A DNA stretch of 64,000 bases, from positions 48,864 through 112,863 of the forward strand of contig CAWADV010000006.1 of assembly GCA_963781115.1 (NCBI GenBank), in the 5' to 3' direction. Shown piece after piece: positions 5,745 to 50,329 of the stretch. The notes beneath the pieces were generated by a model that worked only from the letters and a program-made list of their open reading frames with translations, was not told the DNA's origin and did not search any database. Every line of letters starts with the position of its first letter. Positions within the stretch are counted from its first letter, which is position 1. This stretch comes from an uncultured Actinomycetota bacterium. Lineage in GTDB: Bacteria > Actinomycetota > Actinomycetes > Actinomycetales > Dermatophilaceae. The translations under genes and the position numbers were made by a program.

Positions 5745-5866
5745 CGAGGTCTCCAGTGGCTCGGCGCGGGCGCGACCGGATGGGGCCGCTGTCAGATCAG
5801 GAGCCGGCCGGGGGTCTGGTGATACACGCGGGGTCCCGTCGTCTGCGACATACCGCGGGGCCTGTG

Positions 5867-5898
5867 CACTCACCGCGGGAGATCGCCCGCGGTGAGTG
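5867..5898. promoter_or_regulatory. perfect 13-bp inverted repeat upstream of the ACP operon
   Basis: cactcaccgcggg-agatcg-cccgcggtgagtg in a divergent intergenic region. Confidence 0.45.
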
Positions 5899-5980
5899 AC
5901 GATGTAGGCGTGGAGTGGCGGGCCGAGCTGTCACGTATGCCGTGGGGCCGGCTCCGTCACCGGGTCCCGCACATTTCTGG

Positions 5981-6536: not shown

Positions 6537-6582
6537 TGTGTCCTGCACTCACAGCGCTCCAGCGCCGTGGGTGCAGGACACA
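6537..6582. terminator. long hairpin between convergent genes
   Basis: tgtgtcctgcactcac...gtgggtgcaggacaca imperfect inverted repeat. Confidence 0.55.
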
Positions 6583-9395: not shown

Positions 9396-9534
9396 CCCCG
9401 CGGCCCTGGCGCTCTGTCGCCCTAGTGCTCTGTCGCTCGGCCGCTCTGCCGCTCTGGTTCTCGCCGCCCTGGCACTCTGCCGCCCCGGCGCTCTGCGCCC
9501 TGCCGCCCTGGCCCGGCCGTCCCGAGGCCGCCCC

Positions 9535-9606
9535 ACGAGGACCCGGAAATGTCGACTCCTGGCCTGTTATATGAGGTCGTCGGTTGACTTTTCCGGGTCA
9601 TAGTCG
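9535..9606 (-). repeat. 72-bp palindromic element, distant copy of the 47501/47718 elements
   Basis: minus strand cgactatgacccggaaaagtcaac...cctcatataacagg...gagtcgacatttccgggtc aligns without gaps to 47719..47790. Confidence 0.75.
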
Positions 9607-10466
9607 CCATGCGACCGAAGCGCAGCTCGAAGGTCGACGTCCCCGGTCACCACCGACACGACGTCGCCGCCGACCCAGACCTGGCCGTCGACCGTGTCGA
9701 GGAAGATGCGGCCGTCACGCCTCAGGCGGGTGCCCTGCCCAGCGACATACGAGGTCGGCAGCCGTCCCTCGCCGACCAGCCACTGGGCCAGGCCGGCGTT
9801 GAGGCTGCCGGTCACCGGATCCTCCGCGAAGTCCCGGTCGTCGCCATAGAACGCCCGGACCTCGACGTCGCGCCCGTCGCGAGCCGGATCCTGCGCTCCC
9901 CAGCGCCCGACCAGCCCCACCTTGAGCCCTCGGCACAGCGTGGGGTCGGGCTCGACCGCCAGCACGTCGGCGGCAGCCGCCAGCTCCAGGCCCACCCAGC
10001 CCGGTCCGTTGTCGATCCACGCCGAGGACACGACGCTGGCCGGGTCGAGCCGCAGCCCGCTCAGGATCCGGTCGAGATGGGCCGGCTCGACCGCACCTGA
10101 CCGCCTCAGTGGGGGCGCGGCGAAGGCGAGGCGTTCACCTCGGCGGACCTGCACCAGCCCCACGCCACACTCCTGGACGACGACGTCGGGGGCGGCCGCC
10201 ATACCTCCGGCCTCGAGCCAGGCGTGCGCCGACCCGAGGGTGGGATGCCCGGCGAACGGCAGCTCGCCGCCGGTGGTGAAGATGCGCACCCGGTAGTCCG
10301 CCGCCGGGTCGGTCGGCGACAGCAGGAAGGTGGTCTCCGACAGGTTGGTCCACCGGGCGAACGCGGCCATCTGCTCCTCGCTGAGGTCGTCGGCGTCGTG
10401 CACGACCGCCAGCGGGTTGCCGAGCAGGGGGACAGCGGTGAAGACGTCGACCTGGCTGAACCGCAT
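9567..10466 (-). CDS. PhzF family isomerase
   Basis: QVDVFT..GNPLAVV, NLSETTF, ELPFAGHPTLG, EDPVTGS. Confidence 0.92.
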   Translation of the reverse strand: MRFSQVDVFTAVPLLGNPLAVVHDADDLSEEQMAAFARWTNLSETTFLLSPTDPAADYRVRIFTTGGELPFAGHPTLGSAHAWLEAGGMAAAPDVVVQECGVGLVQVRRGERLAFAAPPLRRSGAVEPAHLDRILSGLRLDPASVVSSAWIDNGPGWVGLELAAAADVLAVEPDPTLCRGLKVGLVGRWGAQDPARDGRDVEVRAFYGDDRDFAEDPVTGSLNAGLAQWLVGEGRLPTSYVAGQGTRLRRDGRIFLDTVDGQVWVGGDVVSVVTGDVDLRAALRSHGDYDPEKSTDDLI

Positions 10467-10537
10467 GCCGCCATGCAAGCACAGCCGCCCGCTGAGCTCG
10501 CCGCGACCAGCGCAGCCCCGCCCGCTGACCGGCTCAG

Positions 10538-10614
10538 GTGCGCACGTGTACACGTGGGCCGACAGATCAGCCCGTCTCACCGGCCTGCGTGTGCACGTGC
10601 ACACGTGGGCCGAC
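10538..10614. repeat. two 26-bp direct repeats with palindromic core
   Basis: gtgcgcacgtgtacacgtgggccgac (10538) and gtgtgcacgtgcacacgtgggccgac (10589). Confidence 0.7.
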
Positions 10615-34881: not shown

Positions 34882-35025
34882 CCCCACCGGACGCGCCAGC
34901 CAGCGACAAAACACCCCACCGGACGCGCCAGCCAGCGACAAACCACCCCACCGGACGCGCCAGCCAGCGACAAACCACCCCACCGGACGCGCCAGCCAGC
35001 GACAAACCACCCCACCGGACGCGCC
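34882..35025. repeat. 32-bp tandem repeat, ~4.5 copies
   Basis: unit ccccaccggacgcgccagccagcgacaaacca at 34882, 34914, 34946, 34978 and partial 35010. Confidence 0.92.
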
Positions 35026-35034
35026 GGCCGGCGG

Positions 35035-37879: not shown

Positions 37880-37925
37880 AAGGCTACGACTTTTGGCCCC
37901 CAGAGGGGCCACAACACGAAGCCTT
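37880..37925. promoter_or_regulatory. imperfect inverted repeat in divergent intergenic region
   Basis: aaggctacgacttttggcccc...ggggccacaacacgaagcctt. Confidence 0.4.
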
Positions 37926-37990
37926 GATGCACCCGTGCAGGATGGCGCGATGCCGCCGCCCCGCACCCCGCCCCGTCCCTGCATCCCACC

Positions 37991-40836: not shown

Positions 40837-42272
40837 ATGGTCTCCCTCCGCTATGCCGCGAGGTCCCACACGGGGCTGGGCACCAAGTCGCGCAACGAGG
40901 ACTCCGCCTATGCCGGGCCCGAGCTGCTCGTGCTCTGCGACGGCATGGGCGGCCACGCGGCCGGTGACGTCGCCAGCAGCCTGGTCGTCGGCGAGCTGGT
41001 CCACCTGGACGGTGAGTCGCACGGCGCCGACGACATGCTCGACATCCTCGAGTCGGCGGTCGTCGCGGCCAACGAGCACCTGGCCGACGTCGCCGGGCAG
41101 ACCGAGGCGCTCGAAGGGATGGGCACCACCTGCATCGCGATGCTCCGCTCCGGCACCAAGCTCGCGGTGGCCAACATCGGCGACTCCCGTGCCTACCTGC
41201 GCCGGGGCCAGCGGGTCACCCAGATCACCAAGGACCACAGCTTCGTCCAGAAGCTGCTCGACGAGGGCCGGATCTCCCCCGACGAGGCGCTGCACCACCC
41301 GCAACGCGCGCTGGTCACCCGGGTCCTCACCGGCCGCCCCGAGGACCACCCCGACCTGTCGGTGCGCGAGCTGCGCAGCGGCGACCGGCTGCTGCTCTGC
41401 TCCGACGGCCTGACCGACTACGTCGCCGAGGACACCGTCGCCGAGCTGCTCCGCGACCCCGGCAACCCCAGCCAGATCGCCGACCAGCTGGTCGCCATCG
41501 CGCTGCGCGCCTCCACCCGCGACAACATCACCGTGATCGTCGCCGACGTCGTGCCCGCCGGCGACGGCGCGACCAAGCCGCAGATCGTCGGGGCCGCCGG
41601 TCGCCGCCGGCCCGGTGAGTCCGTCGCCCCGATGACCCCGGCCGAGAAGGCCGCTGCCCTGGCCCGCGAGGTGCACGGCGACGGCGTCGACGCCGGTCCC
41701 GAGCTGGCCGAGGAGGGCAGCTCGACGATGGCCACCTGGCTGCGGCGTATGGCGGTCGCGCTGGCGATCGTGCTCGTCACCGCGGGCGGGGCCTGGGCCA
41801 CCTACGACTGGTCGCAGCGCCAGTACTTCGTCGGCGAGCAGGACGGCCTGGTGACCATCTTCCGCGGGGTCTCCCAGGACCTCGGCCCACTGACCCTGTC
41901 CCGCTCCGAGCAGCAGACCGACCTGCAGGTCCTCAGCCTGCCGGAGTTCTACCAGGAACGCGTCCGCGGCACCCTGACCGCCGACGACCGCCCTGGTGCC
42001 GACGCGATCGTCGCCGAGCTGCGCGGCCTGTCGCTGCCCCCGTGCGCCGACCTGGCCGACGACCTCGACGCACCGCCACCAGCAGCCCCAGCGACACCGC
42101 GACCGTCACGGGGGCTCCCTCCGACGACGCCAGCGCGACGACGACCCCGCCCACCAGCACCGGCGACGTCACCGACCAGACCAGCGCGACCGCCATACCG
42201 GACGACCAGGCGACGACCAGCGCCCCGGCCCAGCCCGACCCGCCGGTCCCCGGCGTGGACTGCCTGCCGTGA
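40837..42272 (+). CDS. pstP: PP2C Ser/Thr phosphatase (a frameshift ~42100 artificially fuses it to rodA)
   Basis: RNEDS, DGMGGHAAG, NIGDSRAY, LCSDGL, DNIT, TM. Confidence 0.92.
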
Positions 42273-42291
42273 CCGGCCCGGTGATCCCCCG

Positions 42292-43662
42292 ATGACCACG
42301 ATCAGCACCGCCAACCCGCGCACCGGCCGCGGCACCGAGCTGCTGCTGCTCGCCTTCGCCTGCGCCATCGTGCTGCTCGCCTACGTCAACCTCGGCCTGG
42401 TCACCAGCGGCGAGGTGCCGGCCAACCTGGTCGCGCACGCCGTCGGCCTCTGCGCGATGGCGCTGGTCTTCCACCTGGTCGTCCGCTGGAAGGCGCCCTA
42501 CGCCGACCCGCTGATGCTGCCCATCGCCACGCTGCTCAACGGCCTGGGCCTGGTGATGATCCTGCGGCTCGACCTGGCCGTCGGACGCGACCCGTCCAGC
42601 GGCACCGCGAGCCGCCAGCTGATCTGGACCGCGCTGGCCGTCGGCGCCGCGCTCGCCGTGCTGATCGTGGTCAAGGACCACCGGGTGCTGCGCAAGTTCA
42701 CCTTCATCTCGATGCTCGCCGGTTTCGTCCTGCTGCTGCTGCCGATGCTCCCGGTCATCGGTGAGGCGCAGAACGGCGCGCGGCTGTGGATCCGGGTCGG
42801 CGCGTTCAGCTTCCAGCCCGGCGAGCTGGCCAAGATCGCGGTCACCATCTTCTTCGCCGGTTACCTGGTCTCGACCCGGGACGCGCTCAGCCTGGTCGGC
42901 CGCAAGGTGCTCGGCCTGCAGCTGCCCCGCGGCCGCGACCTCGGCCCGTTGCTCGTCGTCTGGGCGCTGTCGGTGCTGATCCTGGTCGCGCAGCGCGACC
43001 TGGGCTCCTCACTCCTCTTCTTCGGCATCTTCATCGCGATGCTCTATGTCGCGACCGAGCGGGTGAGCTGGATCGTCATCGGTCTCGGCCTCTTCGTCGG
43101 TGGCGCGTATGTCGCGTGGCGGCTGTTCGCCCACGTCCAGTCCCGCGTCCACCTGTGGCTCGACCCGTTCGCGGCCGACCAGTCCGACCAGGTCGCCAAG
43201 GGGCTGATGGGGATGGGCCACGGCGGCCTGCTCGGCACCGGCCTCGGCGAGGGCTATCCGCACCTGACCTACTTCGCCAACAGCGACTACATCATGGCCA
43301 GCTTCGGCGAGGAGCTCGGCCTGGTCGGGCTGTTCGCGATCCTCATGCTCTATGCGCTGCTCGCCGAGCGGGGGCTGCGCACGGCGATCGGCGCCCGGGA
43401 GGGCTTCGGCAAGCTGCTCGCCGTCGGCCTGGCCTTTGCGGTGGCGCTGCAGGTCTTCGTCGTCGTCGGCGGCATCACCCGGGTCATCCCGCTCACCGGC
43501 CTGACCACGCCGTTCCTGTCGGCGGGCGGCTCCTCGCTGCTGGCCAACTGGATCATCGTCGCGCTGCTGCTGCGGATCAGCGACCATGCCCGGCGGCCGA
43601 TCAGCGAGCGGGTCACCGGGCCGGCTGTCACCACGCCGACCCGGGAGGTGGTCGCGCCGTGA
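42292..43662 (+). CDS. rodA: RodA/FtsW family SEDS protein
   Basis: SFQPGELAK, RDLG, PLTGLTTPFLSAGGSS. Confidence 0.93.
   Translation: MTTISTANPRTGRGTELLLLAFACAIVLLAYVNLGLVTSGEVPANLVAHAVGLCAMALVFHLVVRWKAPYADPLMLPIATLLNGLGLVMILRLDLAVGRDPSSGTASRQLIWTALAVGAALAVLIVVKDHRVLRKFTFISMLAGFVLLLLPMLPVIGEAQNGARLWIRVGAFSFQPGELAKIAVTIFFAGYLVSTRDALSLVGRKVLGLQLPRGRDLGPLLVVWALSVLILVAQRDLGSSLLFFGIFIAMLYVATERVSWIVIGLGLFVGGAYVAWRLFAHVQSRVHLWLDPFAADQSDQVAKGLMGMGHGGLLGTGLGEGYPHLTYFANSDYIMASFGEELGLVGLFAILMLYALLAERGLRTAIGAREGFGKLLAVGLAFAVALQVFVVVGGITRVIPLTGLTTPFLSAGGSSLLANWIIVALLLRISDHARRPISERVTGPAVTTPTREVVAP

Positions 43663-45139: not shown

Positions 45140-45143
<4 letters not shown>
43659..45143 (+). CDS. pbpA: class B penicillin-binding protein
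   Basis: PGSVFK, SCN, GKTGTAE. Confidence 0.93.
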
Positions 45144-47331
<2,188 letters not shown>

Positions 47332-47357
<26 letters not shown>

Positions 47358-47500
47358 CCTGGCCGGCTGGGTGCGCGGCTGGCGCCACTCCGCCGACGCC
47401 CACCGACGCTGCAAAACCCCTCTGACCCGGCTCCACCCAGAGCCCGCCGACGCCCCAAACCCCTGTGACCCGGCCCACCCAGAGCCCACCGACGCTCCGA
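47332..47500. repeat. duplicated pknB 3' end and degenerate 42-44-bp repeats
   Basis: ccactccgccgacgcccaccg at 47332 and 47385; ccgacg...tgacccgg...cacccagagccc units at 47403 and 47447, partial at 47489. Confidence 0.7.
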
Positions 47501-47578
47501 GCCCACTATGACCCGGTTATGTCGACTCCGACCCTCCTATAACCGGTTGGTAGTCGCTATAACAGGGTCATAGTGGGC
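47501..47578 (+). repeat. palindromic element, copy 1
   Basis: 27-bp arms gcccactatgacccggttatgtcgact / agtcgctataacagggtcatagtgggc (24/27 complementary). Confidence 0.88.
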
Positions 47579-47717
47579 GAGAGTCGTAGCGACCGTGGTG
47601 GCAGCGGCGCCGCTGCCCTACCGACGCCACCATGAGCCGACGGCCCACTCTCCTCGGGCCGCCCCAGAGCCACCGCCCATCTCTCCCCGGGCCACCCACA
47701 GTCAGCCGCCGTCTCGC

Positions 47718-47793
47718 CCGACTATGACCCGGTTATGTCGACTCCGACCCTCTTATAACCGGTCGAGAGTCGCTACAACAGGGGCATAGTCGG
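47718..47793 (+). repeat. palindromic element, copy 2
   Basis: ccgactatgacccggttatgtcgactccgaccctcttataaccggtcgagagtcgctacaacaggggcatagtcgg. Confidence 0.88.
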
Positions 47794-47901
47794 AGCAAGA
47801 GCACTCCAGCGGCCGTCCACACCTCACGCCCGCGGCGGTCGTGGTCCACAGATCGAGCCGCCGGCCACCCATCGTGGAGCGGCACGACCCAGGCTGGCGC
47901 G

Positions 47902-48885
47902 ATGGACGGCGAGAGCCACACAGGCAGCGACCCCGCGGACGACGCACGGCAGCGCGAGCTGGCCACGAGGCTTGCCGCGACTGAGGGTGTCGCTTCGAGG
48001 TCAGATCTGACGAGCTGGGGCTACACGACGCAGACGATCGAGCGGCTGTTGCGCCACCGCCTGCTCCGCCGGGTGGCTCACGGCGCTTATGTCGAGGCGG
48101 CGACCTACGCCAAGGCCGGCCGACAGGAACAGCACCGGCTGCGGACTCTCGCCCTCCTGCGCTCCCGCCCCGCCCTGGCGGCCAGCCGCCTCAGCGCGGC
48201 GGTGGTGTGGAAGCTGCCGGTGGCGCCGGCCGGTCTCGGGCGCGTCCACCTCAGCCGGCCTGGTGGCAGCGCGACGCACAAGCGAGCGGGTTACACCGTG
48301 CACGGCGGGTTCGTCGTGCCCGCCACCGTGGTGGAGGTCCACGGCGTCCGCGTGGAGTGCCTCGCGGTGGCGGTCATCTGGGTGGCGATCATGCAGGGCG
48401 TGACCAGCGGTGTCGCGGTGGCGGACTGGGCACTCCACCGGGGGATGACCACCCAGGATGAGCTCGCCGACTGGCTCGAACGGATGCGCCGCGTGCCCTA
48501 TCTGGCGATGGCCCGTCGCGCCGTGCAGCTGGCCGACGGCCGCTCCGAGTCGCCTGGCGAGTCGCGGCTGCGGATGGTGCTCCTGGCCCTGGGCTACGTC
48601 GTCGAACCTCAGTGGCGGGTCCACACGAGCAACGGGGCTGTCATCGCGGTCGTCGACTTCTATCTGCCCGAGCTCGGCGTGGTCGTGGAGTTCGACGGAG
48701 CGGTGAAGTACACACGAGGGCGGGCCGAGGACGGCGCGCTCGTCGTGTTCGCCGAGAAGCAGCGGGAGGACCGTATCCGGCGGCTGGGGTATGGCGTGGT
48801 GCGAGTCGTGTGGGCCGACCTCGACCACCCCGACGGCATCCGGCACGCCATCGCTGCCGCCGCGCAGGTCGCGACCGTGCGGTGA
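47902..48885 (+). CDS. AbiEi-like N-terminal domain + DUF559/Vsr-like PD-(D/E)xK nuclease domain
   Basis: LRRVAHGAY, SRLSAAVVW, SESPGESRLR, VDFY..VVVEFDGAVKY, EKQREDRIRRLGYGVVRVVW. Confidence 0.8.
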   Translation: MDGESHTGSDPADDARQRELATRLAATEGVASRSDLTSWGYTTQTIERLLRHRLLRRVAHGAYVEAATYAKAGRQEQHRLRTLALLRSRPALAASRLSAAVVWKLPVAPAGLGRVHLSRPGGSATHKRAGYTVHGGFVVPATVVEVHGVRVECLAVAVIWVAIMQGVTSGVAVADWALHRGMTTQDELADWLERMRRVPYLAMARRAVQLADGRSESPGESRLRMVLLALGYVVEPQWRVHTSNGAVIAVVDFYLPELGVVVEFDGAVKYTRGRAEDGALVVFAEKQREDRIRRLGYGVVRVVWADLDHPDGIRHAIAAAAQVATVR

Positions 48886-50278: not shown

Positions 50279-50293
50279 GTTACACCCCTGTAG

Positions 50294-50325
50294 TTATCCC
50301 CAGATGGTGGATAACCTGGGGATAA
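50294..50325. promoter_or_regulatory. cluster of three DnaA-box-like nonamers
   Basis: TTATCCCCA (50294,+), TTATCCACC (50306,-), TTATCCCCA (50317,-), each 1 mismatch from TTATCCACA. Confidence 0.55.
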
Positions 50326-50329
50326 CCCC

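Follow-up and report, generated by a model that had tools for sequence, protein, structure and literature searches.

The stretch of DNA analysed here (the window; 64,000 nucleotides from an uncultured Actinomycetota bacterium of the Dermatophilaceae) contains an intact 327-aa ORF (47902..48885, + strand) preceded by two palindromic elements. The question that this locus raises is whether the encoded protein, a predicted DNA-binding nuclease, and the palindromes form a gene-repeat pair comparable to that of REP sequences and their RAYT transposases, and if so, what such a protein would do at its repeats.

The locus and its palindromic elements

The cassette of gene and elements is located between a gene that we take from its sequence to be pknB and a conserved convergent neighbour gene. 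Copy 1 (47501..47578) and copy 2 (47718..47793), neither assigned to a strand, have the same orientation. Delimited as 76 nt each (47502-47577 and 47718-47793), they were 89% identical and spaced 216 bp apart, and both folded as DNA hairpins (z about −7), with equally good folds in 0 of 200 shuffles. Each arm of copy 1 contains a motif twice, 20 bp apart (left, TATGAC and TCCGAC; right, TATAAC and TATAAC). The co-varying outer bases described in an earlier reading of the sequence without database searches (the sequence-only reading) were found as a single two-sided change in the outer arms, CCCAC/GTGGG versus CCGAC/GTCGG. A solitary dispersed copy of the same family, which that reading had placed at 9535-9606, was located on the − strand between convergent genes at about 9533..9607, in inverted orientation and with a weaker fold (z −2.4). 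A profile built from the copies detected eight copies on three contigs of the host genome, five of them outside the window. A search of 400 further genomes of the order, of which 25 belong to the host's family and 1 to its genus, did not detect the element. The seven matches from a pattern scan of metagenomes were all judged to be chance, as none came with a hairpin or a clear family gene. Unlike most of its relatives, the window gene has elements upstream only (own-flank score, 23).

The 3′ end of pknB and a near-perfect 25-nt duplicate occupy 47328..47405 (+); the stop at 47355-47357 reads TGACCTGG and resembles the element end TGACCCGG. The duplication had been recognized earlier as one of 21 bp; its presence held but its length did not, as 24 of 25 nt were identical between 47328-47352 and 47381-47405. 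It is followed by degenerate 43-bp tandem units (47398..47516, +), each of which terminates in the terminal motif of the element, TGACCCGG. The motif TGACC.GG recurred at 47423, 47466, and 47509, a spacing of 43 bp, where degenerate 42-44-bp repeats had been reported before, and was also present at the pknB stop codon (47355). These units are likely to be local duplication scars.

A putative −10 hexamer, CAGGCT (47890..47895, +), was noted by eye 6 nt before the ATG, and the gene may have a leaderless promoter. Scans with the sigma-70 promoter consensus and a terminator consensus gave no match.

Among the 29 best-matching loci of relatives (of 54 with the neighbour gene), none had the nuclease within 1.5 kb at this site, and pknB lay within the span in 24. 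Insertion-sequence-like ORFs adjoin the same neighbour gene in two relatives (L092:2259-3362 and L076:2454-3287). DNA contigs of related strains span the gene and the elements, and none has a joint that skips the cassette. In these contigs, the region 47500-47850 differed at 9/192, 14/215, and 15/154 letters versus 4/492 and 6/714 in coding sequence, at low depth and with a possible contribution from other element copies. One contig of run X3 hinted at an element copy with other flanking sequence; this candidate was rejected, as the flank concerned was not found in the host genome.

Several reading frames near the locus are broken. The pknB frame (45140-47357) is split in two near 46330-46530, what we presume to be PstP and RodA read as a single fused ORF (40837-43662), and a region that we take to be rhomboid is broken too. 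The broken frames around pknB are likely assembly indels, because contigs of runs X1 and X2 miss single bases at 50326 and 50948.

Predicted structure of the protein

Pfam matches of the 327-aa protein to AbiEi_4 and DUF559 were weak and below the cut-offs; AbiEi_4 was found in 106 of 122 family members. The closest named homologues, from Ornithinimicrobium and Serinicoccus, are labelled 'AbiEi family antitoxin domain-containing', 'DUF559', or 'very-short-patch-repair endonuclease'. A PDB search with the protein sequence returned nothing significant, and NCBIfam had no family for it. The sets searched contained no close homologue (at best 51-52% identity, along most of the sequence or half of it); the cognate pairing of the exact window element is therefore drawn from the host genome alone.

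Folding from the single sequence was poor (pLDDT 42), and an alignment-based model, which was confident (pLDDT 94.4, pTM 0.90), was used instead. Residues 15-212 of the predicted model, comprising a winged helix and an AbiEi-type middle domain, matched AbiEi 6y8q (Z 10.1, rmsd 5.7, 183 aligned). Residues 217-325, a Vsr/EDxHD-type nuclease domain, matched the homing endonuclease I-Bth0305I 3r3p (Z 10.7, rmsd 3.1, 95 aligned) and Vsr 1cw0 (Z 9.8, rmsd 2.8, 105 aligned). The model thus matches AbiEi plus Vsr/EDxHD across the whole protein length, in agreement with the winged-helix/AbiEi-like N-terminus and Vsr-like C-terminus proposed from the letters, and the protein is predicted to be an AbiEi-fold DNA-binding part fused to a Vsr/homing-type nuclease. 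The middle domain (48124-48540; residues about 75-212) also resembles nucleotidyltransferase folds (MenT1, Z 8.1); its residues S95, H96, H116, H134, and D175 are conserved in the family, H96 being replaced by R96 in the window protein.

An alignment of 122 homologues contained ten invariant columns, E220, E263, D265, G266, K269, Y270, E285, R288, E289, and R301, all of which lie in the nuclease domain (the last third) and are kept by the window protein; D252 is conserved in at least 90% of the homologues. The catalytic residues of Vsr are E25, D51, H64, H69, and D97, and the EDxHD family has an extra acid at the F62 position, as given in the portion of PMC3239194 that was available. In a by-eye alignment, E220 and D252 correspond to Vsr E25 and D51, E263 corresponds to the acid at the F62 position, and the canonical histidine positions of Vsr and I-Bth0305I read D265 and K269/Y270, so that the histidines appear to be replaced.

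Pairing of family genes with their own repeats

The gene family was present in 33 of the 41 genomes searched, with 12 members in the host genome, of which one is split. The flanks of 149 family genes (600 bp upstream and 450 bp downstream; 142 genes with full flanks) were compared, and an upstream/downstream match score of at least 45 was taken as a shared two-sided repeat. Such a repeat was found at 97 of 142 homologues versus 8 of 775 ordinary host-genome genes, these and the following counts being made over related genomes and hence on samples that are not independent; it was found at 4 of 91 ordinary genes with intergenic space on both sides and in 33 of 1500 swapped pairs. The other 45 family genes, including the window gene, had no shared two-sided repeat. 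In 15 genomes, 36 of 63 upstream flanks matched the downstream flank of the same gene, and 0 of 269 comparisons gave a match to that of another paralogue. Among 117 genes with a repeat, 4 of 6292 pairs below 50% protein identity shared it, and so did 127 of 158 pairs at 60% identity or more. Many syntenic gene pairs below 60% identity carry different repeats, which indicates motif turnover while the locus stays in place.

The repeats are also dispersed. Each of the 12 host paralogues had flank matches elsewhere in the genome, ranging from one or two to more than 30 loci. The paralogues were scattered over a quick tree, in which there was only one close pair; this pair has one repeat class in common. 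When 1238 intergenic regions were clustered de novo, 10 repeat communities were obtained in at least four regions, and 9 of them abut a family gene; the tenth was tRNA-like by eye, and the window element class fell below this threshold. The sequence-only reading had proposed a REP-RAYT-like pairing of gene and palindrome, and the association, its cognate nature, and the dispersed copies bear it out. Of the outcomes named there as refuting, a lack of association and a lack of dispersed copies did not materialise.

Orthologues were syntenic; the gene is chromosomal, rarely duplicated, and mostly vertically inherited. The same intergenic site in L002-L004, L006-L008, L010, and G000:C5:336504-337460 holds family genes that are 37-43% identical and have different repeats, the gene at G000:C5:336504-337460 being opposite in orientation to those of its relatives; this site is either an ancient residence or a reuse hotspot.

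Further repeats were seen in the course of this survey. Solitary elements at 5847-5913, 6537-6582, 10522-10604, 34883-35033, and 37880-37929 of the window represent five other classes, and each of these classes is linked to a different paralogue at another place in the genome (the class of the 6537-6582 copy was assigned by eye). The classes at G000:C5:265900-266520 and G000:C3:587400-588650, found in 28 and 21 intergenic regions, have a 32-bp direct period and are not long palindromes. A tandem array of about five 51-bp units at G000:C5:156703-156995 shares its outer palindrome of 16 bp with the C2:111300 class, whose gene is split into two ORFs.

Presence and absence in sister species

The sister pair G001 and G073 is about 86% identical. 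G001 has a family gene (L022) and about 25 element sites, and G073, which is 98% complete, has neither. Filled and empty sites, which had been envisaged from the window alone, were thus found when eight G001 loci were compared with G073: the gene locus measured 1382 versus 237 nt, five solitary sites were empty in G073 with alignable flanks, and two more lay inside larger rearrangements. Filled sites bring extra flanking DNA relative to the empty ones. No target-site duplication or clean ends were seen by eye between filled and empty sites of this pair, in which, at about 86% identity, old target duplications could be eroded. One G001 site was also empty in the outgroup G010, which has the gene, and is therefore likely a gain; this is the only gain that was polarised, and loss in G073 could explain the remaining sites. 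The L022 repeat class was matched in 3 of 13 genomes with an orthologue and in 0 of 47 without; the other 10 had no class match at the threshold used, and diverged repeats were seen in them by eye.

Where both sisters keep the gene (G023 and G010), 7 of 7 paired element sites were shared, and each genome had one further unpaired copy. Movement is therefore slow, and persistence may reflect a benefit to the host and not enzyme action. These comparisons establish the pairing of gene and repeat, the specificity of one gene for one repeat, the dispersal of the repeats, and their joint presence or absence in sister species.

Internal structure of the elements

Direct 4-mer repeats in 45 unrelated class representatives peaked at 19 and 20 bp (counts of 77 and 95; shuffles that kept the palindrome gave 10 and 13; z 11-13). 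A helical periodicity of 10.5 bp, our first guess, was rejected, as 19-20 bp fits instead. The 19/20-bp period was the best one in about 15 of 44 classes, with a motif near −35 to −25 and again at −16 to −6 from the axis, and the axis lay between two bases in 38 of 44. No fixed position of a sub-palindrome emerged across the element classes. In the host genome, the 19-20-bp period ranked top in 3 of 7 profiled classes, including that of the window, and was absent in the other four, three of which belong to distant paralogues as judged by tree or HMM score. A motif repeated at 19-20 bp in each arm is a feature of the subfamily of the window protein.

Copies within a class kept their length, and their spacers varied in sequence and pairing; neighbouring copies often have spacers in common. 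Covariation of the arms was not in excess: 141 of 449 cells were paired versus 153 expected from permuted copies, and none of the 6 testable classes exceeded expectation. Because the motif occurs twice per arm and the arms do not covary, double-stranded protein sites are favoured over an RNA stem, and the elements are read as a probable array of protein sites on duplex DNA. AbiEi and Rv2827c bind duplex inverted repeats in their own promoters, with four sites for Rv2827c, whereas TnpA-REP acts on folded single strands, as far as the accessible parts of PMC7319586 and PMC8266576 describe them.

Short tandem duplications were present in 19 of 132 element flanks and in 101 of 2255 control windows.

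A DnaA-box-like motif upstream of family genes

A DnaA-box-like 9-mer, TGGTCCACA (47842..47850, +), precedes the ATG of the window gene by 60 bp, the modal spacing of the family. A 9-mer with a TCCACA core within 130 bp of the estimated start was found for 94 of 138 family genes and for 21 of 939 host-genome genes with comparable upstream space; for strict TTRTCCACA, the values were 69/138 and 8/939. Box-to-start distances clustered at 59-62 or 49-53 bp for forward boxes and at 47-49 bp for reverse boxes. Of 23 strict boxes in the host genome, 6 precede family genes. Strict boxes were also seen at G000:C2:641157, C4:264446, C2:672807, and C4:332843-334405, each preceding a gene; these genes are presumably DUF4192, dnaB, divIVA, and dnaA. 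At 50293-50326 of the window (L001:3892-3925), downstream of crgA, there is a palindrome with DnaA-box-like halves, and both G001 and G073 have a conserved palindrome like it. The DnaA box of Mycobacterium tuberculosis is given as YWRTCCACA in the available part of PMC5043019, and the window 9-mer matches it at 8 of 9 positions. From this resemblance we infer that DnaA may bind at the promoter 9-mer.

Proposed mechanism and alternatives

We consider it somewhat probable that the protein binds its cognate array as duplex DNA and nicks it, and that host repair then duplicates, homogenises, or relocates the elements, with expression tied to replication. Several protomers would fill the four motif sites in a head-to-head arrangement, and the nuclease domains would nick inside or beside the array. 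Recombination or template switching primed by the nick could duplicate the element locally, which would leave tandem pairs and the 43-bp scars, and occasionally could carry it, together with part of its flanking DNA, into a new intergenic site, with no target duplication. DnaA would couple expression to replication, when the sister chromosome can serve as template. Movement of the gene itself, whether by this route or through horizontal transfer, would be rare, and protein and motif would then drift together. Against this explanation, a nuclease without known strand-transfer chemistry cannot insert DNA alone.

In a wider form, which we put forward only tentatively and regard as doubtful, the family would constitute a class of self-propagating bacterial DNA, in which an antitoxin-fold reader joined to a homing-type nickase spreads copies of its own four-site duplex array over the chromosome by nick-primed, DnaA-timed repair. 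Such a class would account for essentially all dispersed intergenic repeats in the host genome, and likely in many others, and reader and site would be re-specified every few speciation events.

The placement and conservation of the elements bear on whether the protein is instead a domesticated regulator or chromosome organiser, with the elements as host-selected operators or 3′-end signals and the nuclease irrelevant to spread. Elements occupied 30 of 366 convergent gaps versus 38 of 1506 gaps between tandem genes and 11 of 345 between divergent ones, a preference that such a role could explain. Element ends were also conserved in place between the gene-keeping sisters G023 and G010, differing at 5/126 positions versus 78/399 in interiors and 98/318 at third codon positions; since off-by-one copies blur the element column classes, only the ends count as conserved. 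Binding of AbiEi and Rv2827c to inverted repeats in their own promoters (PMC7319586, from the part available) points in the same direction. The invariant residues, however, all lie within the nuclease domain, and element sites arise at new positions. Nor does the arrangement look like a regulon: the twelve paralogues have mostly private repeats, and motifs turn over rapidly at loci that stay in place. We therefore regard a purely regulatory role as unlikely.

The gene neighbourhood speaks to a second alternative, a defence or addiction module in which the dispersed arrays keep a toxic nuclease inactive until site loss or a replication signal frees it and the cell is killed. The single-gene cassette with a DnaA-box-like motif, the joint loss of gene and repeats, and weak matches of PADLOC AbiEi models in 13 of 15 members would suit such a module. 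On the other hand, among 70 neighbouring genes scanned with Pfam (mostly downstream, picked from 156 called; 7 without a match), there was neither AbiEii nor any toxin-antitoxin or defence family, and those with a match were mostly housekeeping enzymes. No AbiEii toxin was found in the host genome, which is 85% complete, and beside the window gene itself, whose neighbours are pknB and the convergent conserved gene, the toxin is lacking just as had been observed at the outset. A search with the family gave 0 phage matches and 2 weak plasmid matches. This alternative seems quite unlikely to us.

The elements might also partner the protein as folded single strands, in the form either of structured RNA or of ssDNA hairpins like those of RAYT systems. 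They lie just 3′ of stop codons (median distance, 52 bp), many of the copies next to genes form near-perfect hairpins, and the window copies fold strongly with one two-sided change, all of which would fit a folded partner. Arm correction by template switching would, however, account for single two-sided changes. The absence of covariation at variable arm positions in 6 of 6 testable classes and spacers that conserve length but not pairing argue against folding, and a scan of the window matched no Rfam family. The structured-RNA or hairpin-partner option, which the sequence-only reading had left beside its main proposal, is thus very unlikely. Finally, that the elements are MITEs moved by another transposase, the gene being a passenger or a regulator caught between two copies, agrees with the fixed length and inverted ends of each class and with relatives that have no cassette at this site, but is highly improbable given that by eye no target-site duplication or clean ends occur at empty sites, that no Y1 transposase was found in the 85%-complete host genome, and that one-to-one pairing with a gene family is not expected for a passenger.

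Comparison with known systems

Duplex binding followed by nicking and host repair, the explanation preferred here, recalls in its genomic pattern the REP/REPIN-RAYT systems, REPtrons, and TIRtrons. In the parts of PMC5581495, PMC3733652, and PMC8266576 that were available, these comprise a rarely duplicating chromosomal gene with cognate palindromes in its flanks and dispersed intergenically, as here, and several repeat-specific genes per genome, as in the host genome. The enzyme of REP-RAYT is an HUH/Y1 tyrosine transposase that cleaves its repeat and transfers the strand, whereas the present protein is predicted to combine AbiEi with a Vsr-like nuclease without an HUH/Y1 fold, and no Y1_Tnp was among the Pfam matches of the 122 members. 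REP sequences have a short stem with a GTAG/CGTC tag that is recognised as folded single strand; no such tag was seen in the class consensus lines viewed here, and the present elements, at 50-90 bp, are arrays whose spacers vary and do not pair, which points to duplex recognition. The system resembles REP-RAYT in its genomic pattern and differs from it in both enzyme and repeat type.

The type IV antitoxins AbiEi and Rv2827c (PDB 6y8q and 1zel) have the same two-domain fold as that predicted for residues 15-212. They bind inverted repeats upstream of their own genes, according to the accessible text of PMC7319586; here, repeats occur also downstream and genome-wide, mostly away from promoters. 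Unlike in AbiE toxin-antitoxin systems, a nuclease is fused to the antitoxin-like part, and the AbiEii toxin was not found adjacent, among the 70 neighbours elsewhere, or in the 85%-complete genome.

The predicted nuclease fold is that of I-Bth0305I (EDxHD) and of Vsr/DUF559 (Z 10.7 and 9.8), with the catalytic acids conserved, as judged from parts of PMC3239194 and PMC3424549. In contrast to EDxHD and Vsr proteins, the window gene is free-standing and intergenic, is not in an intron or intein, and has no partner methyltransferase among the neighbours scanned. It differs from a homing endonuclease in that its own site lies beside the gene and is not interrupted by it; by eye, the histidines appear to be replaced. 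The Myt-1 and Myt-8 stem-loops of Mycobacterium and MITEs are likewise dispersed 60-90 bp intergenic inverted-repeat families in actinobacteria; Myt-1 and Myt-8 are linked to no gene in the available part of PMC2267715. No description of this gene-repeat pairing was found in the literature searched, although loci of this kind could be listed in the supplements of PMC3733652 or PMC2267715.

The pairing provides a candidate cause for dispersed palindromic repeats in actinobacteria. It also suggests a candidate function for this gene family, which is very common and currently carries the labels 'AbiEi antitoxin domain' or 'DUF559'. Because a predicted target lies beside each protein, binding and nicking can be assayed directly, and the family might serve as a source of many orthogonal site-specific nickases; if reader and site are indeed re-specified together, they would form a large natural library of such orthogonal, sequence-specific enzymes. 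Next to REP-RAYT, the system is an independent second case of the same puzzle, the persistence of a rarely moving enzyme together with its private repeats.
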